From the NCBI GenBank assembly GCA_964476475.1, contig CAYZAT010000001.1, positions 1 to 58,264 of the forward strand: DNA of 58,264 nucleotides, given 5' to 3'. Both the position numbers and the translations under genes were made by a program. The notes under the pieces are model-generated. The model had not been told where the DNA came from, ran no database searches, and saw nothing but the letters and a program-made list of their open reading frames with translations. The DNA is from an uncultured Pirellulales bacterium (GTDB lineage: Bacteria > Planctomycetota > Phycisphaerae > Sedimentisphaerales > Anaerobacaceae). This document shows positions 1,319-56,071 of the stretch, one piece after another; position 1 is the stretch's first letter; every line of letters starts with the position of its first letter.

Positions 1319-4048
1319 TTAGGGTCGGTACAAGCGAATGTCGTCAACAAATATCGTGCCGGAACCGCCGGGGCCGGTGAGACCCGATTGGGTTCCCAGA
1401 CCGATGGCGATTTTGTCCACGTTACCCAGGTTAATCCCCTGGTCGGCAAGGGCCTGCAGCGGGAAGCGCCACTCGGTCCAGTCGTCGATCTGGGCCGCCG
1501 CCGGATCGTCATTCGCCACGACCGCCGGGGCGCCGGACGCATTGGAAACCGCGACGTACATCGGTTCGGCTGCATTGCTGGCGATACCAATGTCCTGGTT
1601 CGTCCATTGCCCGGTGACTCCGCCGCTCGACGTTATATCGGAGAACTGGGCTTCGCAGACAACGCCGGCGGAATGAGACGTCAGCGCTATGCCGATATAG
1701 ACAGTTTGCGCCATTGGAATGTTTTGCGCATTCCACGTCATCGGTTGCCACGTGCCGCCGTCGCTGGAATAGAAGGCTCTGAAGTTACCTGCTGCATCAC
1801 GTTCAAATCTTATCCAGTAGGGCGCCGTGATGGCTGTCTGCGTGCTTGATACGACAGAATCGTCGGCCACGGCGTCTGCGTCGGTTGTCATTCGCGCCTG
1901 GAATCGACAACCGTTGCCGGGCGAGATAAAGACCCATGCGAACTTCGAGCCGGGATCCAGCGATTCCCGAATCATGATACCCGCTTTGGCCCAGGCGTTT
2001 GTGTTCTCAACGCTGAGCACCTGGGCTTGCATCGATCCGCTGCCGTTCAATGTTTTGAACGCGTAGTGGAACTGATCGGCAGTGCCCCAGATATCTTCGC
2101 CTTCCGCGGTCATCGTGTATGTCCCGACGGGGCCTTCGACGAAGCTGCCGGTGGAGGCCGGAGCGCCGTGGAACCACAATGAAAAGTCGGTCACGCCTTC
2201 CACGGTCCAGTCGCGAGCCTTACTCAATGTCAGGATCGCCTCGGAATTGGTCACGCCTGCTATGTTGGCATAAAGCAGCGGCATGGACTGCAAGCCGCTT
2301 TGCACGGTTGCCTGCTCGGCATAGGGCGGCAGCAGATAACCGACCTGCGCGCCGTTGTCGGCGACGCCGAAACCGTCGATCCAATGTTGCCAGATGGCTT
2401 CTCCGGCGATGTCATCATCCGTGTAGCTCTCGAAGTCTTCGACGATCACGAAGTCGGCGGTGGTGAAGCTCCAGACGCGTCCGAGCCACGGACTGTCGGG
2501 ATTGGTATTATTCACTTCGTCTATACGCCAGTAGTACGTCGAATTCCACGCCAGTTGACCCGGATCGTACATTTCATCGCCCAGGGCTTTCGTGCCCTTG
2601 TATTCAGGCGATGCGGTCGTAGCGTTTCGCACAGCTTCTGCGTCTGCGCCGAAGTAGATTTCATGTGACGCTGCGGGGATTGCCGGGTCCCATGTGAGGA
2701 TGGGTGTCTGCGTGACGTCCACGGCCCCGTCCGCCGGATTCGGATTGCCGACGGCGCCCTCCGTCGTAAAGCTCCAGACGTCCCCTTGGTACGTCGTAAT
2801 CGCATCGAATTCATCGACACGCCAGTAGTAGATTTTCGCCGCTTTGAGGGTTCCGGGGTCATAGCTGGTCGTTCCCGCGGGAACTCCAACCGTGGCATTT
2901 GCGACGGTGTCATAGTCCTCGCCGAAGTACACGGTATGCAATTTCGCACCAAAACCCGGCGTCCAGTTCAACTTCGCGTTCAAGGCCACAGAGTCGGCCC
3001 CATCCGCCGGATCAGGAGCATAGGCCTTTTTGGGGGGAATGGAAAAGCTCCAGACGTCGCCTTTATGGACGGTTTCATCCGGCGGTGCGTTCACCTCGTC
3101 GATGCGCCAGTAGTAGGTCGTACCCGGCGCCAGCCCTTCCGGATAAGCAAAACCCGGAAAGCCGGCGATATAAAAATCACCGGTCTGGTTGCCCCGAAAT
3201 ACGCCGGACTCTCTCGTGGCGTCGTTCACCTCGTCGAGGTTTTCGCCCATATACACATCGTGCGAGACGGCAAAGTCTCCGGCTCGCCAGGACAGGGTCA
3301 CCCACGTATCCATGTGTATCGCGCCGTTGGCCGGATTGGGACCCGATGCCTTGGGATAAGCGCCCATACCTTCCATAATCGTCTGAATTTCCTCTTCCGT
3401 CAGTGCGCGGCTGAACAGCGACACATCATCCAGGGCGCCGTTCATTTGGCGTCCCGGAAAATCGCCAGACCCGTCCCCCCCCAGGTAGATGTTGGCGTTC
3501 CAATTGTTCGAGCCATGAGAAATCTCGTTGACGGATCCCGCCACGCCATTGACATAGAACGTGGCCTGATCGGGCTCGACCACCACGGCGGCAAAGGTCC
3601 AGTCATCCTCCGCGATCATGTCGCCACCGCGGTAGCTCCACGAGTCGGACGTATCATTCCAGTGATACGCCAACTGGTAACCGAGGATGTTGAAACCCGT
3701 TGCAACGCCGCGGGTCATAATGAACGAGGACCAGTCCGGCTGTGAACCGTCCGGTTTGATCCATCCGGCCATCGTGGCTTCCGTCAGTTCCATGTCAATA
3801 GGGGGGACTTCAACCAGTGTGGGCCCGTACAACTCAATGGCGCCTCCATGAATGCCCTCGGTCCAGGCGGGATCGCCATACGCAAACGTCCCGTCGTGGC
3901 CGTTGCCGGACGCATCACTCACAACGTTACCTGCCCCTTCATCACACGCCCACCAGGCGATGAGACCCGGCAAAGCGCCATAAACCTGATTCATCGGGGC
4001 TAAGCCCAATAATATGAGGACAACCACATACATCACTTTTCGAAACAT
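1319..4048 (-). CDS. Exported LamG-head / 3x beta-sandwich repeat / C-terminal IDDIRLY-module protein, with a nested DUF1349-like lectin domain (family member B, 909 aa)
   Basis: A signal peptide (MFRKVMYVVVLILLGLAPMNQVYG) is followed by a LamG_3-like region (DASGNGHDGTF ... LDDVSLFSRALTEEEIQTIM). Three repeats follow with SH(D/E)(V/I)Y(M/F)G...YYWR(I/V)DE...VWSF(S/T). The C-terminal module ends FVDDIRLYRP. RBS is gaaggagaagtatt before the ATG. Confidence 0.9.
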   Translation of the reverse strand: MFRKVMYVVVLILLGLAPMNQVYGALPGLIAWWACDEGAGNVVSDASGNGHDGTFAYGDPAWTEGIHGGAIELYGPTLVEVPPIDMELTEATMAGWIKPDGSQPDWSSFIMTRGVATGFNILGYQLAYHWNDTSDSWSYRGGDMIAEDDWTFAAVVVEPDQATFYVNGVAGSVNEISHGSNNWNANIYLGGDGSGDFPGRQMNGALDDVSLFSRALTEEEIQTIMEGMGAYPKASGPNPANGAIHMDTWVTLSWRAGDFAVSHDVYMGENLDEVNDATRESGVFRGNQTGDFYIAGFPGFAYPEGLAPGTTYYWRIDEVNAPPDETVHKGDVWSFSIPPKKAYAPDPADGADSVALNAKLNWTPGFGAKLHTVYFGEDYDTVANATVGVPAGTTSYDPGTLKAAKIYYWRVDEFDAITTYQGDVWSFTTEGAVGNPNPADGAVDVTQTPILTWDPAIPAASHEIYFGADAEAVRNATTASPEYKGTKALGDEMYDPGQLAWNSTYYWRIDEVNNTNPDSPWLGRVWSFTTADFVIVEDFESYTDDDIAGEAIWQHWIDGFGVADNGAQVGYLLPPYAEQATVQSGLQSMPLLYANIAGVTNSEAILTLSKARDWTVEGVTDFSLWFHGAPASTGSFVEGPVGTYTMTAEGEDIWGTADQFHYAFKTLNGSGSMQAQVLSVENTNAWAKAGIMIRESLDPGSKFAWVFISPGNGCRFQARMTTDADAVADDSVVSSTQTAITAPYWIRFERDAAGNFRAFYSSDGGTWQPMTWNAQNIPMAQTVYIGIALTSHSAGVVCEAQFSDITSSGGVTGQWTNQDIGIASNAAEPMYVAVSNASGAPAVVANDDPAAAQIDDWTEWRFPLQALADQGINLGNVDKIAIGLGTQSGLTGPGGSGTIFVDDIRLYRP

Positions 4049-4167
4049 AATACTTCTCCTTCAAGAAAACCTGTGATCGTGATGCCCCAGTCACCCACCT
4101 GAGCGACCAGCATCGGTTTCATACATATTGATTCTCGTTCTATAGCAACATAAGGTGGGGATTTCGG

Positions 4168-6306
4168 TCAGTATAACCGAATGTCGTCAATGAACAACGT
4201 GCCCGATCCGCCGGCAGCCGCACCGGCTTTACCGCCCAGGCCGATGGCCATCTTATCCACATTGGTTAAATTGATCCCCTGATCGGTAAGCGCCTGCAAC
4301 GGAACGCGCCACTGTGTCCACGACCCGTCCGTGGCGGCGCTCGGATCATCATAGGCCGCAACCGCAGCCGAGCCGGCGCTGTTGGAAACCGCGACATACA
4401 GCGGTTCTGCTGCGTTGCCCGAATCGCCCCTGAACCAGAGTGACAGTTCCGAGACACCCGCCTGTGTCCAATCCCGCGGCGCCGTCAGAGCCAACGTCGC
4501 CTCCGAATTCGTTACGCCCGCTTCGTTAATGTAAAGCAGCGGCATAGACTGGGAGCCGCTATGAACAATGGTCTGCTCGGCATAGGGGGGCAATAAATAG
4601 CCGACCTGTGCGCCGTTATCCGCAATACCGTAGCCGTCCACCCACGTTTGCCAGATGGCCTCACCGGCAACGTCGTCATCGGTGTAGCCCTCAAAATCAT
4701 CAATTGAGAGGAAAGCACCCGTCGTGAAAATCCAGACAGGCCCGGTTGATCTATTGCCTTGAGCATCGACTTCATCGACGCGCCAGAAATAAGTCGTACC
4801 GGCCTCGAGCAATCCCGGATCGTGATTCTCAGCCCCCAGCGCCTTGGATCCTTTATACTCGGGCGAGGTCGTATCGGCGTTGCGCACGGTCTCTTGATCT
4901 ATCCCGAAGTAAAGTTCATGCGAGGCCGCGGAATCGGCCGATGTCCAGCCAAGAACCGTATTCATTCCGACATCCGTGGCGTTATAGACGGGTTTCGGAT
5001 TCCCGACGGCGCCCGGGGTCGTGAAGTGCCAAATATCACCCTTATGCGTCGCGAGGGCATCAAATTCATCAACCCGCCAGTAATAGACTTTTTCGCCTTC
5101 AAGGGGACCGGGATTATAGCTTGCAATGCCCACAGGAGCACCTCCAGCGGCATTGTTTACCTCATCGAATGTCTCGCCGAAGTAGACCGTATGTAGTTTT
5201 GCCCCGTACCCCGGCGTCCAACTCAAAGTGACATCATCCGGGCCAACGACTTCGGCGCCGTCGGCCGGTTCGGGATGATATGCCGTCTTCGGTGGAATCG
5301 TGAAGCTCCAGACGTCCCCCGTATAGACGGTTTCGTCCGGCGGTGCATTCACCTCGTCGATGCGCCAATAATAGGTCGTGCCCGGTACAAGACCATCCGG
5401 ATAGGCAAAGCCGGGGAAGCCGGCGACATAAAAATCAGCGGTCTGGTTGCCAAGGAATATGTCGGAATCTGTGGTGGCATTGCTCACGTTATCAAAATTC
5501 TCGCCCATATAGACGTTGTGCGAGACAGCAAAGTCGCCTGCCCGCCAGGCAAGGGTTACCCATGTATCCATATGCATGGCGCCGTCCGCCGGATCGGGAT
5601 TTGCGGCTTTTGGATAGGTACCTAAACCGTCCATGATAATCTGAATTTCCTCTGCCGTCAGCGCCCGGCTGAACATCGCAACATCATCCAGGGCGCCGTT
5701 CATTTTGCGATCCGTACCAGCATAAGTGTAATCACCCCCCAGGTAGATGTTGGCGTTCCAATTGTTCGATGCGTGAGAAATCTCGTTGACGGATCCGGCC
5801 ACACCATTGACATAGAACGTGGCCTTATCCGGCTCGACCGTCACGGCGGCGAACGTCCACTCATCCTCAGCGATCATGTCGCCGCCTCGGTAGCTCCAGG
5901 AGTCTGACGTGTCATTCCAGTGATAGGCCAATTGATAACCCAGAATATTGAAACCTGATGCAACGCCGCGCGTCATAATGAACGAGGACCAGTCCGTTTG
6001 TGAAGCGTACGGTAAGATCCATCCGGCCATCGTGGCTTCCGTCAGTTCCATATCAATGGGTTGTATTTCAACCAACGTGGGCGCTACCAGTTCGACGGCG
6101 CTGCCGCGATTGCCCGGAACCCAAACCGGATCGCCATTGACAAACGTTCCGTCATGGCCGTTGCCGGACGCATCCCCCACGACATTACCGGCCCCTTCAT
6201 CACACGTCCACCAGGCAATGAGATCCGGCACGGACCCATAGACCCGATTCATCGGGGCTAAACTCAACATTATTAACAGAACCACAAATATCGCGTGTCG
6301 AAACAT
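4168..6306 (-). CDS. Exported LamG-head / 3x repeat / C-terminal IDDIRLY-module protein (family member C, 712 aa)
   Basis: The N-terminal ~230 aa are nearly identical to member B. The same three repeats and C-terminal module are present (DDFEGYTDDDVAGEAIWQTWVDGYGIADNGAQVGYLLPPYAEQTIVHSG...LFIDDIRLY). The RBS context gaaggagaagtattATG is identical to B. Confidence 0.9.
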   Translation of the reverse strand: MFRHAIFVVLLIMLSLAPMNRVYGSVPDLIAWWTCDEGAGNVVGDASGNGHDGTFVNGDPVWVPGNRGSAVELVAPTLVEIQPIDMELTEATMAGWILPYASQTDWSSFIMTRGVASGFNILGYQLAYHWNDTSDSWSYRGGDMIAEDEWTFAAVTVEPDKATFYVNGVAGSVNEISHASNNWNANIYLGGDYTYAGTDRKMNGALDDVAMFSRALTAEEIQIIMDGLGTYPKAANPDPADGAMHMDTWVTLAWRAGDFAVSHNVYMGENFDNVSNATTDSDIFLGNQTADFYVAGFPGFAYPDGLVPGTTYYWRIDEVNAPPDETVYTGDVWSFTIPPKTAYHPEPADGAEVVGPDDVTLSWTPGYGAKLHTVYFGETFDEVNNAAGGAPVGIASYNPGPLEGEKVYYWRVDEFDALATHKGDIWHFTTPGAVGNPKPVYNATDVGMNTVLGWTSADSAASHELYFGIDQETVRNADTTSPEYKGSKALGAENHDPGLLEAGTTYFWRVDEVDAQGNRSTGPVWIFTTGAFLSIDDFEGYTDDDVAGEAIWQTWVDGYGIADNGAQVGYLLPPYAEQTIVHSGSQSMPLLYINEAGVTNSEATLALTAPRDWTQAGVSELSLWFRGDSGNAAEPLYVAVSNSAGSAAVAAYDDPSAATDGSWTQWRVPLQALTDQGINLTNVDKMAIGLGGKAGAAAGGSGTLFIDDIRLY

Positions 6307-14197: not shown

Positions 14198-14899
14198 ATG
14201 GCAGAAGAAAATAGTGGTATGGGTGTGATTTTCGATCTGGATGGAGTGCTGGTCGATACGGGCTGGGCGCATAAGCAATCATGGTACGATCTGGCCGAGA
14301 AAGAGGGTTTGAACATGTCGGATGAGTTTTTCTACGGTACGTTCGGTATGCGGAACGACCAGATCATTCCGAAGCTGGTGGAAAGATCGTGTCGCGGGCA
14401 TCTTGCCCGCGATTCGAGGGCGGGACGCTTTCGACACGTGGGCCAACTTTCCGATTGGAAGGAACAACGTTATCGCGAGATTATCGCCGAGAAGCTCACA
14501 TTGCCGGCGGGCGTCGGTGAATTGCTCGATGATTTGAAGAAGAACGATTTTCTGATGGCCGTGGGTTCCTCAGCGCCAAAGGCCAATTTGAACCTTTGTT
14601 TGGATCGCGTACACATAAGAGACTATTTTGACGCTTGCGTGACGGGTGAGGAGGTCGTTGAAGGCAAGCCGGCGCCGGAAACGTTTCTCAGGGCTGCGGA
14701 GAAGCTGGGGCTTTCGCCGCAATGTTGTGTCGTTGTGGAGGATGCGGCCCAGGGCGTCGAGGCGGGCAAGGCCGCCGGGATGCCCGTCGTGGCCGTCACA
14801 ACGACCCGGGACCGGGCGGATCTGTCGGCGGCAGATATCATCGTGGACAGTTTAGGCGAGTTAACCGCAGAGGCCTTCGCCCGGCTGCTCAGAGCTTAA
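14198..14899 (+). CDS. HAD-superfamily hydrolase (beta-phosphoglucomutase/phosphatase-like), carrying an in-frame repeat insertion
   Basis: HAD motifs are present: VIFDLDGVLVDT (motif I), GSSAP (II) and GKPAPETF ... VVVEDAAQGVEAGKAAGM (III/IV). The cap region contains the repeat-encoded segment RSCRGHLARDSRAGRFRHV. Confidence 0.85.
   Translation: MAEENSGMGVIFDLDGVLVDTGWAHKQSWYDLAEKEGLNMSDEFFYGTFGMRNDQIIPKLVERSCRGHLARDSRAGRFRHVGQLSDWKEQRYREIIAEKLTLPAGVGELLDDLKKNDFLMAVGSSAPKANLNLCLDRVHIRDYFDACVTGEEVVEGKPAPETFLRAAEKLGLSPQCCVVVEDAAQGVEAGKAAGMPVVAVTTTRDRADLSAADIIVDSLGELTAEAFARLLRA
14388..14438. repeat. GC-rich hairpin element (family 2), in-frame copy inside the HAD hydrolase gene
   Basis: The sequence is cgtgtcgcgggcatcttgcccgcgattcgagggcgggacgctttcgacacg. 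The hairpin is cgcgggca-tct-tgcccgcg and the outer inverted repeat is cgtgtcg/cgacacg. The core 14391-14428 matches the reverse complement of 24478-24515 at 37/38 positions and 54876-54913 at 33/38 positions by my manual alignment. Confidence 0.8.
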
Positions 14900-20357: not shown

Positions 20358-20426
20358 TGTAGGGGCGACCCTGTGGGTTCGCCCGGACGTTAACAATGAA
20401 TGAGGGCAATCTCACGAGATTGTCCC
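20358..20426. repeat. GC-rich hairpin element (family 2), intergenic copy
   Basis: The sequence is tgtaggggcgaccctgtgggttcgcccggacgttaacaatgaatgagggcaatctcacgagattgtccc. It forms two hairpins: gggcga...tcgccc, and gggcaatct...agattgtccc with a bulge. Confidence 0.6.
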
Positions 20427-22491: not shown

Positions 22492-23853
22492 ATGGCCATG
22501 CAACGTGAAAGACTGAGCGATCCCGATTGGGCGTGGGCGGCGTACGAACCGGACGCCGAGCGGCCCTGGACGCTCGCTCAGGCCGGGCACCTTTATCGTC
22601 GAGCTGCTTGTGGGGCTACCTGGGAGCAATTGCAGCAGGCACTCTCGGATGGACCACAACGAACGATCGATAAGTTACTGAAACCACAGGCGGAGGTGGT
22701 AGCATTCAATACCAAATATGACCAGTATGAGACATCCACCACTTCGATTAGTGATTTGCGGGCATGGTGGCTTCGACGAATGATCCAAACCCCCCATCCG
22801 CTTTTAGAGAAAATGACGTTGTTCTGGCACAGCCATTTTGCCACCAGCGGTTCGGCGGTTCAGAACGTTTCACTGATGCGGCAACACATCCGGCTTCTCC
22901 GCCGCCAGGCCCTGGGTTCGTTCGGAATCCTTCTCGAAGGTGTTTCGCGCGATCCCGCAGTTTTTCTCTGGTTGGGTGCCGACGCCAATCGCAAAGCCCT
23001 TCCGAATGATAACTTCGTCCGACCATTCATGGAAACCTTTACGATAGGCCCCGACCACTGTACGGAAAAGGACATTCAGGAGGCCGCCAGGGCCTTTACC
23101 GGCTGGTTCGTACTGAGGGGACAGCTTCGTTATATTCCTCGCGAACAAGATGATGGTGTCAAGCACATCCTCGGCCGGGAAGGGGATTTTACGAGTGACG
23201 ATGTGGTGCGAATCTTGCTCGAACAGCCGGCTACGTCGCGGAGGGTGGTTCGTAAATTGTATCGCTGGTTGATTAGCGAAACGGAGGAGCCGAACGCTGA
23301 TCTGATTGTGCCTTTGTCCGAGTCCTTCGCAAAGGACTATAATGTGCTTGGACTCACCGAGAAGATGTTGCGCTCGAACTTGTTCTTCTCCTCGGCGGCT
23401 TATCGCCAGCGCATCAAGAGTCCGGTGGAATTTGCGTTAGGTGTCGTTAAAGGGTTGGAAGGCGTCGTGTCCACAACGCACCTCGCTCAAGATCTGGCCG
23501 CACTCGGTCAGAATCTCTACTATCCGCCGACGGTCAAAGGCTGGACGGGAGGACGATATTGGATGGATAGCGCGTCGGTCGTCGGCCGGTATAATCTTGC
23601 GTTAGCGTTATTGCGAGACTCGGGGCCTTATGAGAAAAAGCTTAATCCTCGAATCGTCGTCGAGAAATATGCGTGTTCAACAGTCGAATCCGCTTCGAAA
23701 CTTCTGCTTGAATTGTTTCTGCAGGGTGATGTCGATCCCGGTGTCCGTGAGATGTTGTCCAAAACGATCCGGACGAAGGGCGATGGTTCCGATGCGAGTT
23801 TGCGTCGTTTTACCCATGGGGTCATCACGCTTCCTGAATTTCACCTGGCGTGA
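22492..23853 (+). CDS. DUF1800 domain protein
   Basis: The pattern LLEKMTLFWHSHFATS and the overall ~450-aa layout are typical of DUF1800. The gene is immediately followed by a DUF1501 gene, which is the canonical pairing. Confidence 0.85.
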   Translation: MAMQRERLSDPDWAWAAYEPDAERPWTLAQAGHLYRRAACGATWEQLQQALSDGPQRTIDKLLKPQAEVVAFNTKYDQYETSTTSISDLRAWWLRRMIQTPHPLLEKMTLFWHSHFATSGSAVQNVSLMRQHIRLLRRQALGSFGILLEGVSRDPAVFLWLGADANRKALPNDNFVRPFMETFTIGPDHCTEKDIQEAARAFTGWFVLRGQLRYIPREQDDGVKHILGREGDFTSDDVVRILLEQPATSRRVVRKLYRWLISETEEPNADLIVPLSESFAKDYNVLGLTEKMLRSNLFFSSAAYRQRIKSPVEFALGVVKGLEGVVSTTHLAQDLAALGQNLYYPPTVKGWTGGRYWMDSASVVGRYNLALALLRDSGPYEKKLNPRIVVEKYACSTVESASKLLLELFLQGDVDPGVREMLSKTIRTKGDGSDASLRRFTHGVITLPEFHLA

Positions 23854-23870
23854 AGATTGGAGAAAGTACT

Positions 23871-25136
23871 ATGTCTTATACACGACGTGATTTCTTGAAG
23901 GCTACGCTCGGGACTTCGGCGCTGCTCTCCTTCACAACACCGAATGTCCTCGTTCGCGCTGCACCGAGCGCCTCTCGCGGCGATGATAGCCGGACCGTTC
24001 TTGTCGTGATCCAACTATCCGGCGGAAATGATGGTCTGAATACGGTGGTTCCGTATGGGGACGACGAATACGCCCGCAATCGCCCGACGCTGGCCCTGTC
24101 GCCTAAAGAAGTGCATAAGATCGATTCATTGCTCGGCCTCCATCCGCGTATGGGCGCATTCAAGCGTTTGTATGACGAGGGATACCTGAGTATTATTCAG
24201 GGCGTCGGTTCCCCGAAATTCGAGGGTTCTCACGATGCTGCGATGCGGATATGGCATACGGCCGATTCCGATAATCCTAAACGTCAGACAGGTTGGCTCG
24301 GCCGGACGGTTGATAATATTTGGCGCGCGGATAGAACGGAGACACCGGCCGTCTTCGTTGGGCCGATCACTCAGCCGTTTGCCTTAAATGCTGAGAACGT
24401 GTTCGTTCCTTCCGTTCAATCGCCCGACGATTTGACGACCAACATCCATATGAACGCGGCTCTCCTTCGTGTCGAGGGCGTCCCGCCCTCGAATCGCGGG
24501 CAAGATGCGCGCGACACAGCGGCTCGATGCGACGATTCGCTATTGGATTTTCTTCGTCGTTGCACGTTGAAAGCCCATACAAGTACGCAACGGATCGAGG
24601 CCGTAACAAACTCGGCGGCTAACATCGGTGGCTATCCGTCATTCCGGCTCGCGCGGACTTTGCGAAACATCGCCCAGCTTATCCGGGCCGATATTGGTAT
24701 CAGGATATTCTTCGCCGAACTCGGCGGCGGCGGCATCGGCGGTTTCGACAATCACGCCAATCAAAAAGGCAACCACTGCGCCTTGTTGCACCAGTTATCT
24801 GAGTCCGTGGCGGCATTCGTCGATGATCTGAAACGCGATAAGCTGCTGGACCGGGTCTTATTGATGACGTTCTCGGAATTTGGCCGGACGGTCAAGGAAA
24901 ACGGCCGGCGCGGCACGGGGCACGGTGCGGCGGCCCCCATCTTCTTAGCCGGCGGTAAACTCAAAGGCGGGCTTATCGGCGCGCACCCCAGCCTTACGGA
25001 TTTGGTGAACGGCTCACCGAAGGTTCACACCGATTTTCGCCGGGTTTATGCAACCGTGCTGGATCGCTGGCTTGGTTTTGAAAGCCGATCCGTGCTTGGT
25101 AAGCAGTTTGAGCCGCTGGATATGCTGAATGTTTGA
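23871..25136 (+). CDS. DUF1501 (sulfatase-fold) protein with a Tat signal, carrying an in-frame repeat insertion
   Basis: The Tat signal is MSYTRRDFLKATLG. Family patterns are QLSGGNDGLN, FDNHANQ, SEFGRT and GTGHGAA. I chose ATG 23871 (ggagaaag RBS) rather than the track's 23850 start. Confidence 0.85.
   Translation: MSYTRRDFLKATLGTSALLSFTTPNVLVRAAPSASRGDDSRTVLVVIQLSGGNDGLNTVVPYGDDEYARNRPTLALSPKEVHKIDSLLGLHPRMGAFKRLYDEGYLSIIQGVGSPKFEGSHDAAMRIWHTADSDNPKRQTGWLGRTVDNIWRADRTETPAVFVGPITQPFALNAENVFVPSVQSPDDLTTNIHMNAALLRVEGVPPSNRGQDARDTAARCDDSLLDFLRRCTLKAHTSTQRIEAVTNSAANIGGYPSFRLARTLRNIAQLIRADIGIRIFFAELGGGGIGGFDNHANQKGNHCALLHQLSESVAAFVDDLKRDKLLDRVLLMTFSEFGRTVKENGRRGTGHGAAAPIFLAGGKLKGGLIGAHPSLTDLVNGSPKVHTDFRRVYATVLDRWLGFESRSVLGKQFEPLDMLNV
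24468..24517. repeat. GC-rich hairpin element (family 2), in-frame copy inside the DUF1501 gene (opposite orientation to the 14388 copy)
   Basis: The sequence is cgtgtcgagggcgtcccgccctcgaatcgcgggcaagatgcgcgcgacac. Hairpins are tcgagggcg-tcc-cgccctcga (24472-24492) and cgcgggca-aga-tgcgcgcg. It is translated as EGVPPSNRGQDARDTAA. Confidence 0.8.
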
Positions 25137-35066: not shown

Positions 35067-37331
35067 ATGAGAAATCTAAAGTTAGTTTTCGTAGTCGTAT
35101 TGGCATTGTGCACGATGGCTATGGCGTCAGACATAGCATTCTATGTCGGAGCGCCTAACATCGATGGCTGGTATGATGTGGATACAATGAATGCGGACGC
35201 TGAAACCATCATTGTCGAATCGGGACATCTTTTCGGCGATGTCCAGAAGTTCAACGACGATCAGTTTGATGACTTTGGTGCCTGGGTCGATGAGCGGACG
35301 GATGACGGTAAAATGGACATTATCTGGCTTAATGGATGCGTGCCCAGTGTTCTCTATCCTTTCCCAAACCTGGAACCGGATGGCTCACGTGCTGAAGCAT
35401 GGCTCGATGGTGGGAATATGTTCATCAACGTCGGCGACTGGTTTGCATACTGCTCGTATGAAGGTGGACCTCGACAGCCTGATAACGGCCCAAGTGGTGC
35501 AGCGAACGTCCTTGACCTTTCTTCGGGTATTATCGTATCCGCTGATAATACGACCATGACCGTGACACCAACAGGACAGGAATATCTCCCCAGTCTCGGT
35601 GACTCCGTCATAACGTATCGACCCGTTGTTCTCACTGCGGTTGTCGCCCCCTGGGAAGTTGCTGCGATATTCGCCTCTCCAGGCGGCTCGGATGATCCGG
35701 CCTTAGAACAACAAGCCGATCCCGTGGTTATTCATAACACGGAGACGGATGGTTACGTTGCTTTTGTCAACCAGTCTGCAGGTAGCGGCCCTCCCGGCTG
35801 GCTCGACGATCGAGGTTTGACCTGTGCCGAATTTATCAACAACTGGGTCAACAGTGAGATCGGATTAGGCAGGGGTAATCCGATTGCCCGCAGCCCGGAT
35901 CCCAAAGATGGCGCTCTCCATGAGGATACGTGGGTTACGTTGTCGTGGAAAGCGGGCGCTTTTGCCGTTTCGCACGATGTATATTTAGGTGATGATCAAG
36001 AGGTCGTCGGCAATACCACTCCGGACTCTGACGTATTCCAGGGCAACCAGGCAGCAACGTTTATCGTGGCCGGTTTCCCGGGATTCCCTTACCCGGAGGG
36101 TCTGGTGCCGGGGACGACATACTACTGGCGCATCGACGAGGTTAATGAGGCGGATCCGAACAGTCCGTGGAAGGGTGATGTCTGGAGCTTCTCCATTCCG
36201 CCCAAGACGGCGTACAATCCCGATCCTTCCGATGGATCTCAGATTGCCGACGCGAATGATCCCACGCTGAGCTGGACGTCAGGCTACGGTGCCAAATTGC
36301 ATACTGTGTATTTTGGCAACGATTATGATGAAATAAACAACGCCACCGGCGGCATGATGAGCGGTGTTGCACTCTACCGTCCCGGCCAACTCGACCATGA
36401 GAAGGTTTTCTACTGGCGGGTGGATGAGTTTGATGCGGTCGAGACGCACAAAGGCGATGTCTGGGGCTTTTCGACGCCGGGCGCCGTGGGCGCTCCGCAG
36501 CCGGCCTATGGTGCCACGGATGTGGCGATGAATGCCACGCTGACCTGGACGGCTGCCACGAACGCCGCCTCGCACCAGCTTTACCTTGGGACGGACAAAG
36601 AGGCCGTGCGTGCCGCCGGTGCCGGTTCCCCCGAAGACAAAGGCTCCATGGCTCCGGGCGCTGAGAGTTACGATCCCGGTTTGCTTGAAGCGGGCACGAC
36701 TTATTACTGGCGCGTGGACGCAGTCGATGCTCAGGGCAATACATCAAAAGGTCTCGTTTGGATCTTCACGACGGGAGCTTTCCTCGTTGTGGACGACTTC
36801 GAGAGCTATACCGATGACGATGCGGCCGGCGAAGCCATCTGGCAACACTGGATCGACGGCTTCGGCGTGGCCGACAACGGCGCGCAGGTCGGTTATCTGG
36901 TTCCCCCGTATTGCGAGCAAACAATCGTTCATGGCGGTGCTCAGTCGATGCCGCTCTTGTACGTCAACGAAGCCGGTGTAACGAATTCAGAGGGATCGTT
37001 GACGTTAACAGCGCCGCGTGACTGGACAGAAGGCGGTGTTGCTGAATTGTCACTTTGGTTCCGAGGGAGTTCGGACAATGCGCTCGATCCCTTGTACGTG
37101 TCTGTGGCCAACAGCGCCGGCGCCCCAGCAGTAGTGGCGAACGATGATGCCGAAGCAGCCGCGATCCGTAGCTGGACTCAGTGGCGCATCCCGTTACAGA
37201 CTTTGGCGGATCAAGGCATTAGCCTGGGTAACGTGGACAAGATCGCGATTGGCCTGGGCAGCAAAGGCGGTGCCGCAGTCGGTGGTTTGGGCACAATGTA
37301 TATTGATGACATCCGACTGTATCAACCTTGA
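35067..37331 (+). CDS. Exported family member D: unclassified ~270-aa head / 3x repeat / C-terminal IDDIRLY module
   Basis: AGGAGG lies 8 nt upstream of ATG 35067, whereas the track's 34938 start lies inside the conserved leader. The signal peptide is MRNLKLVFVVVLALCTMAMA. Repeats and C-terminal module match the paralogues and the protein ends MYIDDIRLYQP. Confidence 0.85.
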   Translation: MRNLKLVFVVVLALCTMAMASDIAFYVGAPNIDGWYDVDTMNADAETIIVESGHLFGDVQKFNDDQFDDFGAWVDERTDDGKMDIIWLNGCVPSVLYPFPNLEPDGSRAEAWLDGGNMFINVGDWFAYCSYEGGPRQPDNGPSGAANVLDLSSGIIVSADNTTMTVTPTGQEYLPSLGDSVITYRPVVLTAVVAPWEVAAIFASPGGSDDPALEQQADPVVIHNTETDGYVAFVNQSAGSGPPGWLDDRGLTCAEFINNWVNSEIGLGRGNPIARSPDPKDGALHEDTWVTLSWKAGAFAVSHDVYLGDDQEVVGNTTPDSDVFQGNQAATFIVAGFPGFPYPEGLVPGTTYYWRIDEVNEADPNSPWKGDVWSFSIPPKTAYNPDPSDGSQIADANDPTLSWTSGYGAKLHTVYFGNDYDEINNATGGMMSGVALYRPGQLDHEKVFYWRVDEFDAVETHKGDVWGFSTPGAVGAPQPAYGATDVAMNATLTWTAATNAASHQLYLGTDKEAVRAAGAGSPEDKGSMAPGAESYDPGLLEAGTTYYWRVDAVDAQGNTSKGLVWIFTTGAFLVVDDFESYTDDDAAGEAIWQHWIDGFGVADNGAQVGYLVPPYCEQTIVHGGAQSMPLLYVNEAGVTNSEGSLTLTAPRDWTEGGVAELSLWFRGSSDNALDPLYVSVANSAGAPAVVANDDAEAAAIRSWTQWRIPLQTLADQGISLGNVDKIAIGLGSKGGAAVGGLGTMYIDDIRLYQP

Positions 37332-37389
37332 GCAACTGCGGATAAGTTGGCATTGCGTAGATTAGAATAAGGTTGAGTTGATATCAAAT

Positions 37390-37425
37390 CGGGGCCTATG
37401 CCGGTGCATTACGGTGTAGGCCCCG
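37390..37425 (+). terminator. Stem-loop after member D (putative terminator)
   Basis: cggggccta(37390-37398)...taggccccg(37417-37425) forms a 9-bp GC-rich stem. The sequence is related to the hairpin at 44350-44377. No clear U tract follows. Confidence 0.45.
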
Positions 37426-37533
37426 GTCATTGTCGGTCAGCAAGACAGAAAAGCGCAGAGCGTCTATTTGTCTTCCGTTGCGATTTCCCCATGTTCTATC
37501 GATGGGATATACTGCGTCATCGGGGGATTTTCC

Positions 37534-37563
37534 TTGACGGGCCATTCGTCGATTTGGTATAAG
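37534..37563 (+). promoter_or_regulatory. Sigma70-type promoter TTGACG-N18-(tgg)TATAAG for the E-F-G operon
   Basis: The sequence is attttccTTGACGggccattcgtcgatttggTATAAGtaa, with an 18-nt spacer. It lies about 200 nt upstream of ATG 37771. Confidence 0.5.
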
Positions 37564-37770
37564 TAACGTGAGTGGAGCGTGTGCCTTTTGGGAAGGCATC
37601 TGATGCCTTCAAAATACGCAATGGGTGCAGTTCCAGTGGTTTGTCGAATTGAGGAGGAGGCATTATGCATTATACAAGGCACAGAATAAGAGGGGGACTC
37701 CGTTCTTTGGCATAAGAAGATTCTTACATTTCAGTTAACAACGAGTCTGTTTTTGAAAAGGAGGATTACT

Positions 37771-39765
37771 ATGTTTCAAAAATTGGTCTATTTGTTTTCT
37801 TTTATTTTCATGCTGAGCCTGGTCGGTGTTAGCGGCGGCGCTGAAGGCCTGAAAGGCGAGTATTATCATGCGAGTATCTCAGCGGAGGCCTGGCAGAATC
37901 TGGTGTTCACTCGCATTGATCCGACGGTGAACTTCGATTGGAGTACGAACTCGCCGGATCCGTCCATGAATGACAATGGTTTCATGGTGCGGTGGACGGG
38001 CACGATTGAAGTGCCGAATTCTGAGACCTACACGTTCACCCTCCGGACAGACGACGGCGCCAAGTTATGGTTGAATAATGAACTCATTGCCGACACCTGG
38101 ACCGAGGCCAAGAAATGGCAGGCCACGCGTGAGGGTGTTATCGAAGACAGCGGCAATTTTGTCTTAACAGGCGGGCAGCCATACGAGATTATTCTGGAGT
38201 ACTATGAGAGAAGTAATAATGCCGTATGTGAGCTATCCTGGTCCACTTCGACATTGGCCCGGGAAGCCATCCCGAGCCGGTATCTGTCGCCGGAGAGGCC
38301 GTACCCGCGTGATCCGGACCCGTCGGATGGCGCCATGGTTCGAGATACATGGGTGAGCCTTGGCTGGAGGCCCGGAGATTTTGCGGTCTCGCACGATGTT
38401 TACTTCGGTGAAAATTTGGATGAGGTACGTGAGGGGGGCGGTGACACGTTCTACGGCAACCAGACATCGACAGATTTTGTTGTGGGATTTCCTGGATTTC
38501 CGTATCCGGACGGTCTTGTTCCGGGCACAACCTACTACTGGCGAATCGTCGAGGTCAATGATTTGCACCCCAAAAGCCCGTGGAGTGAAGGCCCGGTCTG
38601 GAGTTTTTCGATTGCTCCTAAGACCGCCTTTAGTCCCAACCCGGCCGATGGTGCCGAATTTGTGGGTCCGGACGATGTGGAACTGAACTGGGAAGCCGGC
38701 TTGGGAGGTGTGCTGCACACGGTGTATTTCGGGGATAGTTTTGATGGTGTCAACAATGCCGCCGGGGGATTCCCACAGGGACCGAAGATCTATAAGCCCG
38801 GCTCGCTTGAACGAGAGAAGATTTACTATTGGCGCGTCGATGAGTTCGACGCCCTCGCGACATACAAAGGCGATATCTGGAGCTTTACGACCCCGGGCGC
38901 CGTTGGAAGTCCCAAACCCTCAAATAAATCCACCGATGTGGGAATGAATGCGATTCTAAGCTGGACGGCATCGGATTCTGCGGCATCGCACCACGTTTAC
39001 TTTGGCACCGAACAAGACGCGGTCCGGAATGCTGATACCGGTTCGCCTCAATACAAAGGCTCCAAGGCGTTGGGTGCTGAAATCCTTGATCCCGGACTCC
39101 TCGAGCCGGACGCCGTTTATTATTGGCGCGTGGATGACGTCGATGCCCAGGGCAATGTATCAACAGGTCCTCTCTGGAGCTTTGCGACGGGCACTTTCCT
39201 GCTCGTGGATGATTTCGAAGGCTATACCGATGACGATACAAACGGCGAGGCGATTTGGCAAACGTGGATCGACGGCTTCGGCGTTGCGGATAACGGCGCC
39301 CAGGTCGGCTATTTGGTCCCTCCGTATTGTGAGCAACAAATCGTGCATGGAGGTTTGCAGTCCGTGCCGCTCACGTATGTCAACGAGGCCGGCGTATCGA
39401 ATTCAGAGGCGACATTGACGTTAACGGCGCTGCGGGACTGGACGGTCTCAGGCGTGGGTGAATTGTCGCTCTGGACCCGGGGCGATATGACCAATGCCGC
39501 CGAGCCATGGTATGTGGCGATCTCCAATACCAACGGAGCGCCGGTGGTTTGGGCTCTTGATGATCCGCGTGCCGCACAAAACATCGCGTGGAGACAGTGG
39601 CGCATTGCTCTACAGTCTTTTGCCGATCAGGGGATTAATCTAACGAATGTGGACAAGATCGCGATTGGCCTGGGTAACAAAGGCGGCGCTGCGACCGGCG
39701 GATCAGGAACGGTGTACATTGACGACATCCGGCTGTATCGAGCGGGCGAAGCGGCAACGCCGTAA
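37771..39765 (+). CDS. Exported family member E: PA14 head / 3x repeat / C-terminal IDDIRLY module
   Basis: RBS is aaggaggattact before ATG 37771. The PA14-like region reads GLKGEYYHA...VNFDW...GFMVRWTGTIEVPNSETYTFTLRTDDGAKLWLNNELI. Three repeats and the C-terminal module follow, ending VYIDDIRLYRAGEAATP. Confidence 0.85.
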   Translation: MFQKLVYLFSFIFMLSLVGVSGGAEGLKGEYYHASISAEAWQNLVFTRIDPTVNFDWSTNSPDPSMNDNGFMVRWTGTIEVPNSETYTFTLRTDDGAKLWLNNELIADTWTEAKKWQATREGVIEDSGNFVLTGGQPYEIILEYYERSNNAVCELSWSTSTLAREAIPSRYLSPERPYPRDPDPSDGAMVRDTWVSLGWRPGDFAVSHDVYFGENLDEVREGGGDTFYGNQTSTDFVVGFPGFPYPDGLVPGTTYYWRIVEVNDLHPKSPWSEGPVWSFSIAPKTAFSPNPADGAEFVGPDDVELNWEAGLGGVLHTVYFGDSFDGVNNAAGGFPQGPKIYKPGSLEREKIYYWRVDEFDALATYKGDIWSFTTPGAVGSPKPSNKSTDVGMNAILSWTASDSAASHHVYFGTEQDAVRNADTGSPQYKGSKALGAEILDPGLLEPDAVYYWRVDDVDAQGNVSTGPLWSFATGTFLLVDDFEGYTDDDTNGEAIWQTWIDGFGVADNGAQVGYLVPPYCEQQIVHGGLQSVPLTYVNEAGVSNSEATLTLTALRDWTVSGVGELSLWTRGDMTNAAEPWYVAISNTNGAPVVWALDDPRAAQNIAWRQWRIALQSFADQGINLTNVDKIAIGLGNKGGAATGGSGTVYIDDIRLYRAGEAATP

Positions 39766-39867
39766 GTCATGCATTTGCTGAGCTTGCAGCTAACCTGACG
39801 CTTATTCGGGACCTGTGCGGGCGCATCTGCATAGGTTCCGTTTCTAATTCAAATAGGGAGAAAACAA

Positions 39868-42054: not shown

Positions 42055-42129
42055 TAAGCTACGAATAAGGAAAGACCGACAGTTTAAAATCGGGGTCTAT
42101 GAACTTCCAGTTTGAAAAAGGAGAAGAAA

Positions 42130-44319: not shown

Positions 44320-44349
44320 ACGAGTAAGGAAGGATCAATCGTTGAAAAT

Positions 44350-54803: not shown

Positions 54804-56071
54804 AGGTATTCGATACGCCCGGATAGAATCTCGTCGGCAGAAACGAAACGAATCTCTTCATCCCAGTCTTCGTGGGTCGCGGGCATCTGGCCCGCGGTTC
54901 GGGGGCGTGAGGCCCTCAAATCAGTTATCCCGTGAGGTTCTCCGATCATCAGAACCGTCGTATGACAACCGGCCTGGTGAGCCAGTTCGATCATTTGCCG
55001 GTAGGTCGGATTCCAATTCAACAAGATAAAGACGACCTCGGATATCTCACGAAACCGATTCGCCCACATCTTTTCATTTAGCTCCGTCGGCTCGCTTTGA
55101 GCCGGTTCCACACCGGCAAGCATTTCGTGTATCCTGTTCAATCGTATGGTTCTCGGGCAGTCCGTAAACCGGTGGAGGTCGGAACCGATGAGCAGCAGAT
55201 CGATCAGGCGGTCCGTATTCATACTAAAAGCAATGGAAGCACAAAGGGAAACGGCGGCTTCGAGTTCCTTATTCTCCGTTGATTGTTGTTGCTGATGAGT
55301 ATCAGGGACAAGATTATCCACGACCAATGCGGCAGAATAATCGAAATCGTCGTGGTATTCCCTTGTTGCCGGCATGCTCAAACGGGCCCAGGCCCGAACG
55401 TCGATCTGGCGGGGCGAATCCCCCGGCAGAAAAGGGCGGTTCCCCGCATATTCGTTCGAGTGCCCCAAACGCCCGACGGGACGTGAACTGCCGGTTTGGA
55501 CCTGTCGGTAGATACCGCGGGTGGGTACTCGAATCGCATGGAAGGCCGGGAGAACGACAAGATTGTCCTCGATAGAATGGAAGGTTCCGAAACGAAACAG
55601 ATTGAAGGGGAAGCTGGATTGGCACGTCGGCTGCTTGATGTGGTAATAGCCCCGTCGCGTGGGTTTGATCGAAAGGGTGACCTCGATGGTTTCGCCGGGT
55701 CCCAGACGTGAGATGATTTGTTCATCACCGGTCTGCTCAATCCCTTCGGGTAAAGTTTTAAACGCTATCCATAGATGATAAGCGCCGAAGCGTCCGACGT
55801 TCTTGACCGTATAGCGCAATACCGTGCTCTGGCCGGCCATGATCCGGTCCGGCAGTGTGCCGTTGAGCTTGATTTTCGGTCGCAGAATAAATCCAGCCAC
55901 TAAGCCGAACAGGACAACCCAAACCAGGATAGAGAGAATCCCAAAGGCCGGAAAGGCTAACGCCGTGAGGGCGACAAACACAATGCCGTTGAGCGCCACC
56001 TTGCCGGCGTCCGTTAGACCGAAACTCAATATACCTTCTGAATTGTTTATCGTTTGTTCTCGCCTTCTCAT
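54800..56071 (-). CDS. DUF58 (VWA-like) protein, carrying an in-frame repeat insertion near the C-terminus
   Basis: Its position between MoxR and the transglutaminase is canonical. It has two N-terminal TM segments, then YAGNRPFLPGDSPRQIDVRAWAR (DUF58 hallmark). I chose the start at ATG 56071, which overlaps the MoxR stop as ATGA; the track start at 56188 lies inside moxR. Confidence 0.8.
   Translation of the reverse strand: MRRREQTINNSEGILSFGLTDAGKVALNGIVFVALTALAFPAFGILSILVWVVLFGLVAGFILRPKIKLNGTLPDRIMAGQSTVLRYTVKNVGRFGAYHLWIAFKTLPEGIEQTGDEQIISRLGPGETIEVTLSIKPTRRGYYHIKQPTCQSSFPFNLFRFGTFHSIEDNLVVLPAFHAIRVPTRGIYRQVQTGSSRPVGRLGHSNEYAGNRPFLPGDSPRQIDVRAWARLSMPATREYHDDFDYSAALVVDNLVPDTHQQQQSTENKELEAAVSLCASIAFSMNTDRLIDLLLIGSDLHRFTDCPRTIRLNRIHEMLAGVEPAQSEPTELNEKMWANRFREISEVVFILLNWNPTYRQMIELAHQAGCHTTVLMIGEPHGITDLRASRPRTAGQMPATHEDWDEEIRFVSADEILSGRIEYL
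54876..54915. repeat. GC-rich hairpin element (family 2), in-frame copy inside the DUF58 gene
   Basis: The sequence is gtcgcgggcatctggcccgcggttcgggggcgtgaggccc, with the hairpin cgcgggc-atctg-gcccgcg. It matches the 14391-14428 core at 33/38 positions. It is translated on the minus strand as RASRPRTAGQMPATHE. Confidence 0.7.

Follow-up and report, generated by a model that had tools for sequence, protein, structure and literature searches.

A 51-nt segment at positions 14388-14438 of contig CAYZAT010000001.1, from an uncultured Pirellulales bacterium, lies in frame within the gene for a HAD-family phosphatase and belongs, with high probability, to a family of non-autonomous palindromic repeats of the repetitive extragenic palindromic (REP) type, dispersed in Planctomycetota and tolerated in frame inside genes. 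Throughout, 'the window' is the whole 58,264-nt stretch analysed. A first-pass annotation had described a GC-rich double hairpin, in frame in the cap region of this phosphatase, whose core recurred in two other, unrelated genes at 37/38 and 33/38 identity. Core comparison confirmed both points: the 38-nt core GTCGCGGGCATCTTGCCCGCGATTCGAGGGCGGGACGC is at 14391-14428, its reverse complement with one mismatch is at 24478-24515 and a match of 33/38 is at 54876-54913. When the window was simulated 300 times with a first-order Markov model, the best chance matches to the core, both strands considered, differed from it at 11-17 positions compared with the observed 0, 1 and 5, and no match within 3 or fewer mismatches was seen in 100 dinucleotide shuffles, so the similarity among the three sites lies far beyond what the composition of the window would produce. 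All three copies fall inside long open reading frames (ORFs), and the window holds no intergenic copy of the unit. The host genes and the copies within them are as follows.

14198..14899, + strand: host gene 1, a HAD-IA / beta-phosphoglucomutase-family phosphatase of 233 aa (Pfam HAD_2/Hydrolase, E 2e-31)
14388..14438, + strand: copy 1, CGTGTCGCGGGCATCTTGCCCGCGATTCGAGGGCGGGACGCTTTCGACACG, read in frame fwd2 as the in-frame peptide S64-CRGHLARDSRAGRFRH-V81
23850..25136, + strand: host gene 2, a DUF1501 protein, with the insert in a length-variable loop
24468..24518, - strand: copy 2, in the opposite orientation to copy 1, so that the + strand gene reads frame rev0, RVEGVPPSNRGQDARDT, as exactly 17 whole codons
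54800..56188, - strand: host gene 3, a DUF58 protein, with the insert in a loop near the C-terminus
54872..54924, + strand: copy 3, degenerate; the minus-strand gene reads it as DLRASRPRTAGQMPATH (frame rev1)

The three genes thus read the element in three different combinations of frame and orientation (fwd2, rev0 and rev1), as had been noticed at first pass. Copy 1 departs from the family consensus at two nucleotides (CC to TT, changing Pro to Phe). Both differences in copy 2 are synonymous, one of them disrupting the stem of hairpin 1, while copy 3, with its 33/38 core, has small indels at either end and three of its five core substitutions are synonymous. Junction-spanning peptides predicted from the window inserts include ...LVERSCRGHL... 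and ...LLRVEGVPPSNR.

The boundaries of the unit were set from base tables flanking 70 independent sites and from an alignment of about 120 copies in other genomes, which gave a repeat of 51 nt or 17 codons (73% G+C) with the consensus Y-GTGTCG-CGGGCA-TCY-TGCCCG-CGATTCG-AGGGCG-GGA-CGCCCT-CGACAC-R. Its ends are sharp, with C or T at position -1 in 62/70 sites and G or A at +1 in 61/70, and carry 7-nt terminal inverted repeats, CGTGTCG/CGACACG. Each half consists of GTGT followed by CG-NGGGCN, a loop and the complement; the halves are inverted around a single T with their heads outward. As single-stranded DNA (ssDNA) the consensus folds into a Y whose base is a closing stem of 4 bp and whose arms are two hairpins, each of 9 bp with a loop of 3 nt (-24.6 kcal/mol, z = -6.6), and each folded half is a short, G+C-rich imperfect palindrome forming a stem-loop, as in the REPs of the GTAG-tagged superfamily (20-40 bp). 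The unit is therefore a compact, tail-to-tail inverted dimer of two REP-like stem-loops with G+C stems of 8-9 bp. All six frames of the consensus are free of stop codons, and they encode these peptides:

fwd0: RVAGILPAIRGRDALDT
fwd1: VSRASCPRFEGGTPST
fwd2: CRGHLARDSRAGRPRH
rev0: RVEGVPPSNRGQDARDT (the whole 17 codons)
rev1: VSRASRPRIAGKMPAT
rev2: CRGRPALESRARCPRH

Judged by comparison with orthologues, all three window segments are insertions. Among the 39 closest relatives aligned for the phosphatase, two unfilled proteins (P0006 and P0007, at 88% and 86% identity) have a short loop, ...KLVE-GASSEV-VEQFSDWKE, where the window protein and P0002-P0004 read ...KLVER-SCRGHLARDSRAGRFRH-VGQLSDWKE; in P0005 and the distant P0046 the segment is a pure addition of 20 aa. 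Alignment of the DNA of an empty locus (L001) with filled ones (L002, L003) placed the 51-nt unit exactly. The site was empty in 52/52 readable sequences among 80 metagenome loci, typically as GAG GTC GAC CGG CTG, encoding EVDRL, and on these alignments the short loop ...SS-EV-DRLSDW is the ancestral one.

Orthologues of the other two host genes give the same picture. In the DUF1501 family, RVEGVPPSNRGQDARDT was found in the window protein, P0122, P0124, P0125 and P0132, which form a sub-clade, and is missing from P0123 (83% identity) and from most other aligned relatives. The DUF58 segment occurs in this species only (P0241) and in none of its orthologues, including those of 82-85% identity; relatives read ...GEPQNIQSNQGSEDWDE... 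where the window has ...GEPHGITDLRASRPRTAGQMPATHEDWDE..., the insert taking the place of about six residues, which are QSNQGS in relatives, so that the protein is 12 aa longer on balance. Across the HAD, DUF1501 and DUF58 genes, then, relatives of 82-88% identity have no homologous peptide at the insert sites, and the alignments requested at first pass upheld the proposal of an insertion. One DUF58 orthologue without the insert (P0261) reads GELVE-GMPATHA at this position, resembling the rev1 end ...GKMPAT, and may hold the remnant of an older, mostly deleted copy.

It is scarcely credible that there was no insertion and that the segments are instead an ancestral Arg-rich loop or a chance GC-rich similarity. 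Beta-phosphoglucomutases in the Protein Data Bank (PDB) also have residues at the cap position, with a net excess in the window protein of only about 6-9 aa over distant homologues, but close orthologues of all three genes lack the segment, chance similarity in the simulations left at least 11 mismatches, and a stretch of 49-51 nt shared in both orientations and in different frames excludes homology at the level of the peptide.

The net gain in the three window genes is 12-14 aa and not 17, because 5-8 neighbouring residues of the empty orthologues are missing. Insertion followed by trimming is the simplest reading of these alignments, with full-addition alleles persisting for the HAD gene. 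Alignment to solved PDB beta-phosphoglucomutases places the HAD insert in the cap domain, and the catalytic motifs are invariant among orthologues. In an AlphaFold2 (AF2) model of mean predicted local distance difference test score (pLDDT) 89.4, the insert falls between cap helices 53-63 and 74-99, where pLDDT drops to 63-64 over residues 61-80; it is thus a poorly determined helix-helix connection, probably at the surface, a point that the first-pass annotation had raised as a question.

The unit is not confined to this species. An exact-pattern scan of one genome per species found at least 117 loci in roughly 30 metagenome-assembled genomes (MAGs), a search of related MAGs having been suggested at first pass; the family counts rest on about 120 copies from the matches listed, and the totals are lower bounds. 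MAG JBARRE01 alone has at least 18 loci, and JAPLMX01 has at least 13, so that the unit combines the many dispersed copies of a REP with the inverted dimer arrangement. Its sequence is nearly invariant although the G+C content of the loci spans 45 to 67%. With one exception, the listed loci belong to MAGs labelled as Planctomycetota (Phycisphaerae, Sedimentisphaerales, 'Pirellulales' and others). The exception, L048 (JAFDIX010000838.1), is a 2.2-kb contig of a 'Deltaproteobacteria' MAG; because the flanks of its element are the same as those of the planctomycete contig L056, it is probably mis-binned and not a cross-phylum occurrence.

Some copies are part of nested composites, in which the unit sits between GTGGCG-AGGGCA...-type hairpins or between CCCATTTTGAGT / ACTCAAAATGGG arms. 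At eight loci (L013, L012, L036, L085, L087, L114, L116 and L106) it is centred in a GTAG...CTAC REP pair (cGTAGTGACGCCGTGAGGCGTT | unit | ...GATGCCCTTACGGGCACACTAC). A scan of viral contigs for the unit returned no match, and hence no sign of phage carriage, and an Rfam scan of the whole window matched no family. A 30-aa query around the rev0 peptide gave three matches at E <= 0.001 among 1.84 billion representative proteins, the peptide being too short to inform. Other classes of element were considered and rejected: a CRISPR repeat (there is no array), an attC site, and an intein or intron (the segment is 51 nt and has no such features). An assembly artefact was rejected as well, the identical protein being present on 11 contigs from several samples.

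The window itself contains REPs of other kinds in its intergenic regions. The first-pass annotation had linked the unit, through a common hairpin layout, with elements at 641-731 and 20358-20426; the general architecture is indeed alike, but kinship with the unit did not hold, as both are canonical GTAG-headed REPs of other sequence families. That at 641-731, GTAGGGACAGGCC...GGCGTCCCTAC, is a GTAG...CTAC inverted pair with a 36-nt spacer (-26.3 kcal/mol), an arrangement resembling the paired REP hairpins known as REPINs, while that at 20358-20426 comprises a GTAGGGGCGACCC... hairpin and a second hairpin.

Residence inside genes extends well beyond the window. We found that 37/120 copies lie in ORFs that reach at least 60 aa on both sides and have the coding signature of a higher G+C content at third than at second codon positions (GC3>GC2), and in 30/36 such ORFs a Pfam scan found domains in the frame that reads through the unit. 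Of about 120 copies, at least 30 are therefore in frame in Pfam-supported genes, which puts the intragenic share of the sample at a quarter or more, and the in-frame colonisation of genes proposed at first pass, by analogy with the Rickettsia palindromic elements (RPEs), proved to be general. Some copies interrupt domains: Glu_syn_central of GltB in two MAGs, with 29 extra residues between 589 and 591 of the Bacillus enzyme (PDB alignment), MoCF_biosynth of MoeA, and GGDEF, CcsA, BlaI and PQQ propeller domains. At L013:4693-6243 (-), a GH97_N domain holds a whole GTAG-REP composite in frame, with about 90 extra residues (317 aa against 229 profile positions). Others lie between domains, in transketolase, CysRS, AlaRS, DnaE, prolidase, aminopeptidase P, acyl-ACP thioesterase, sulfatase, Ser/Thr kinases, a histidine kinase and BlaR1. 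PDB alignments confirmed extra residues at the unit positions, their exact size being ambiguous or gappy for prolidase and MoeA.

The choice of frame was strongly biased. Frame rev0, which gives RVEGVPPSNRGQDARDT, is used by about 21 of roughly 30 non-redundant validated sites (about 70%); at an expectation of 1/6, a count of 21 or higher among 30 would have a probability of about 1e-10. The unit family may even be specialised for life inside coding sequence, a doubtful extension of our reading that draws on its exact 17-codon length; on the approximately 70% of validated copies in phase 0 and one orientation, encoding the hydrophilic, Gly/Pro-rich RVEGVPPSNRGQDARDT; on the quarter or more of copies that are intragenic, including those in the essential GltB, DnaE, AlaRS, CysRS and transketolase; and on the same HAD loop having seemingly been hit independently in lineages only 66% identical.

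We propose that a copy landing in a coding region would add about 17 residues without destroying the gene, the insertion being tolerated in frame because its length is divisible by three and none of its six frames contains a stop. The survivors would be insertions in tolerant surface loops and inter-domain linkers, where they would be translated and would later decay as ordinary loop sequence, the hairpins being broken by point changes and residues next to the insert being lost. Three such insertions are fixed in the window, in the HAD cap loop, the DUF1501 loop and the DUF58 C-terminal loop. Hints that the inserts are translated come from orthologues of 66-85% identity, in which the frame is maintained, from copy 2, which has only synonymous changes (one stem-breaking), from the copy 3 core, with three synonymous changes of five, and from the strong frame bias across sites. 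In keeping with decay, the window copies fold less stably as ssDNA than the consensus (-18.6, -18.3 and -14.9 kcal/mol for copies 1-3, against -24.6), and this lost folding energy argues against selection for hairpins inside these genes. It is accordingly improbable that the hairpin pair is kept for a nucleic-acid function, such as mRNA stability or pausing, transcription attenuation or protein binding, and is no tolerated passenger. Such a function would fit a sequence that stays almost identical across loci of such different G+C content, with third positions conserved inside the unit, but besides the weaker folding of the window copies, a synonymous change in copy 2 disrupts a stem, the host genes and positions are unrelated, and the window has no Rfam match.

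How the unit moves may be gauged from its junctions. At 68-70 unique sites we found no consistent target-site duplication in any register, several word lengths having been tried, with only a marginal 6-mer excess at inconsistent distances. Defined ends without a consistent target duplication are the pattern expected of HUH/Y1 enzymes (REP-associated tyrosine transposases (RAYTs) / IS200-like) and not of DDE-type MITEs (miniature transposable elements with inverted repeats). Mobilisation would thus be in trans, by a single-strand HUH/Y1 (RAYT-like) transposase, although we make the assignment to a RAYT-type enzyme tentatively and at somewhat less than even confidence. That the unit is a MITE, derived from a DDE-type insertion sequence (IS) and moved by cut-and-paste with target-site duplications, is more improbable still than a nucleic-acid function. 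The 7-nt terminal inverted repeats CGTGTCG/CGACACG would suit a MITE, as would the seeming 9-10 nt duplication in the pure-addition HAD alleles, the sole exception-like locus; against this, there is no direct repeat at the 68-70 independent sites in any register, 51 nt is far below typical MITE size, the unit is built of two REP-type hairpins, and no IS with matching ends was seen in 862 kb of flanking sequence.

Several observations weigh against the reading of the segment as a tolerated, REP-type passenger. Openness in six frames was rejected as a special trait of the unit, since it is unremarkable at 73% G+C and was shared by 18% of composition-matched shuffles. The head of the unit is GTGT, not the canonical GTAG, and lies outside the published variants GYAG, GTRG, GTMG and GTGG; in element-bearing loci GTGT heads 199/488 hairpins of the unit's stem type, with GTGG-headed (16) and GTAG-headed (10) ones of the same stem and loop type co-occurring. 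No transposase tied to the unit was found in 862 kb of element-bearing loci, searched by tblastn in 8-kb blocks with the E. coli RAYT (its sequence checked against Additional file 5 of PMC3733652), and the only RAYT genes found there were two that lie beside another REP. These, at L011:1349-1870 (-) and L021:5901-6395 (+), have 42-44% identity to the E. coli RAYT (E 2e-36 and 2e-35) and are bracketed by GTAGG(G/A)TGGGC...GCCCA(C/T)CCTAC REPs, a classic REPtron of a different REP family; because they are flanked by that REP and not by the unit, the link of the unit to such an enzyme is putative.

The remaining contrary points come from the HAD locus. The pure-addition alleles gain 60 nt and not 51, with an apparent 9-10 nt flanking duplication, which does not fit transposition without target duplication; the junctions read EEVDR | SCRG...PRH | VDRLS in P0005 (VDR...VDR) and GTCAGCCGAC | unit | GTGGACCGGC in L002, where the site lies at L002:500-610 and corresponds to window positions 14370-14460. 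Between the window and L003 (L003:10001-10705), third codon positions diverged at 1/17 inside the unit against 67/217 outside it, which suggests nucleotide-level constraint, concerted evolution or homogenisation, or a younger age, rather than simple decay. In addition, P0046 (L002), a protein with no more than 66% identity to that of the window and from a clade that is otherwise empty, has a consensus-perfect copy at the same site and in the same orientation and frame, suggesting from its sequence either recurrent insertion at a hot spot or concerted evolution.

These HAD data give their weight to a possible but clearly less likely account, in which insertion recurs site-specifically, for example at the GTCGAC-containing EV-DR codons of the HAD gene, or copies are refreshed by gene conversion, in place of random insertion followed by selection. 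Such a process would explain the identical placement in distant lineages, including the perfect copy in P0046, together with the nucleotide-level conservation at third positions; empty HAD sites often read GAG GTC GAC CGG, resembling the joined unit ends GTCG/CGAC, and the strong bias of frame and orientation across sites would also fit. However, the flanks of the 68-70 independent sites have a weak Y|R-W preference and no common target motif, 51 nt is short for homologous conversion, and all relevant nodes of a neighbour-joining tree of the HAD proteins have less than 30% bootstrap, too low to count gains and losses. We therefore retain random insertion of a REP-type repeat, with in-frame tolerance, as the better account of the segment.

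Among known systems, the closest counterpart lies in the REPs surveyed by Di Nocera, De Gregorio & Rocco (2013; BMC Genomics 14:522; PMC3733652), who recognised two superfamilies, one GTAG-tagged and one CGTC-tagged. In several species, these authors found, some REPs lie within genes, chiefly in Opitutus terrae (Verrucomicrobia, in the Planctomycetes-Verrucomicrobia-Chlamydiae (PVC) superphylum) and Rickettsia conorii; they classed RPE-4 and RPE-6 as CGTC REPs and listed about 70 intragenic REPs of O. terrae in Additional file 3 (PMC3733652). The first-pass remark that no description of in-frame residence was known for this type of element is thus outdated, in-frame intragenic GTAG and CGTC REPs having been catalogued in 2013 (PMC3733652).

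The GTAG-19 REPs of O. terrae resemble the unit in many respects. Both hosts belong to the PVC superphylum, and both elements are short G+C hairpins with a 3-nt loop, often inverted dimers, in frame in dozens of genes. Host classes overlap (kinases, glycoside hydrolases, dnaE2, uvrA, tRNA-related enzymes and the beta-phosphoglucomutase-family hydrolase Oter_1014). The GTAG-19 peptides GTGVPPV, HG(Q/R)DARAT, SRAGRPCH and VARASRP correspond to VEGVPPS, RGQDARDT, SRAGRPRH and VSRASRP of the unit, so that 5-7 of 7-8 residues agree in four frames, as compared through the encoded peptides; GTAG-19 also encodes WHGRPAR, and by a rough hand tally of the table its GTGVPPV / HGRDARAT frame is apparently the commonest too. 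The hairpins, GTGG-CACGGGCG-TCC-CGCCCGTG in GTAG-19 (back-translated from peptides) and GTGT-CGAGGGCG-TCC-CGCCCTCG in the unit, differ by compensatory stem changes. The unit departs from GTAG-19 in its head (GTGT instead of GTGG/GTAG), in its fixed 51 nt with a 1-nt spacer, where O. terrae dimers have variable spacers and give inserts of 20-50 aa, in its host phylum, Planctomycetota, and in that no cognate RAYT was found in the 862 kb of element-bearing loci. Our full-text literature searches found no description of the planctomycete 51-nt family; it works like an RPE and, going by its encoded peptides, fits best beside the GTAG-19-type REPs as a new relative.

The Rickettsia palindromic elements, RPE-1 and relatives, were reportedly described by Ogata et al. 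in 2000. Like them, the unit is a selfish palindromic repeat found between and inside genes, in frame where the host fold permits and then eroded, and fold-compatible in-frame insertion is what we observed in the three window genes and in 30/36 ORFs elsewhere. RPE-1 is longer, at about 100-150 bp against 51 bp, and resides in reduced intracellular genomes, whereas the hosts of the unit are free-living planctomycetes of sediment and freshwater; the sequences are apparently unrelated and the likeness functional.

REPIN-RAYT systems (Bertels & Rainey 2011; PMC3116915) offer a further parallel. They share with the unit two inverted REP hairpins acting as one, the absence of target duplication and dispersed multi-copy populations, and RAYT genes do occur in the same MAGs as the unit. 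REPINs are, however, almost exclusively extragenic and have longer spacers, each REPIN family has its own RAYT, beside which the family's REP is found, a linkage not seen for the unit in the 862 kb, and the near-identity of the unit across many species would be unusual for vertically inherited REPINs. Nunvar et al. are also said to have described REPIN-RAYT systems. MITEs, too, are small non-autonomous repeats able to extend or interrupt reading frames, and Correia, ERIC, Nezha and Coxiella MITEs occasionally lie in ORFs (PMC3184786, PMC5896051, PMC10969869). They differ in that their inverted repeats derive from an IS and their insertion duplicates the target (TA, for example); for the unit we saw no duplication and no parent IS.

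Other repeats and gene families were noted in the window. A repeat of about 90 nt, AT-rich and with a short hairpin, occurs in three copies (860-950, 1224-1313 and 48553-48642), with a T-rich run after the hairpin on the minus strand. Its stem covaries between copies, ATCGTCGC...GCGACGAT in one against ATCCGCC...GGCGGAT in another. Since one copy, 1224-1313, is placed immediately 3' of a minus-strand gene (1319-4048), the repeat resembles a module in common use, either terminator-like or regulatory. The stretch 35900-44330 is occupied by a tandem array of four paralogous genes, each about 2.3-2.4 kb long (60-88% nt identity), and inverted paralogues of the same family lie at 1390-6030. On a relative's contig, Laminin_G_3-type proteins stand at a position comparable to that of the paralogue array.

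These results extend a known phenomenon, that of the RPEs of Rickettsia and the intragenic REPs of Opitutus, to another large and mostly uncultured phylum, in which roughly one copy in four of a single family can reside in frame, core enzymes being among the hosts. Quantitative features worth noting are the share of copies that is intragenic, the bias towards one frame and the possible HAD hot spot. As recurrent peptides such as RVEGVPPSNRGQDARDT and CRGHLARDSRAGRPRH, among others, stem from a nucleotide repeat and not from a protein motif, work on Planctomycetota MAGs should mask them before homology is searched, domains are annotated or phylogenies are built from alignments. From an intact unit through broken hairpins to the loss of neighbouring residues, the stages of decay offer a concrete route from selfish DNA to ordinary loop sequence. 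If the bias reflects targeting or element-level adaptation and not survivorship, the family would systematically give rise to indels in the loops and linkers of Planctomycetota proteins, and the unit would be a tractable model of a 'protein-compatible' selfish element.

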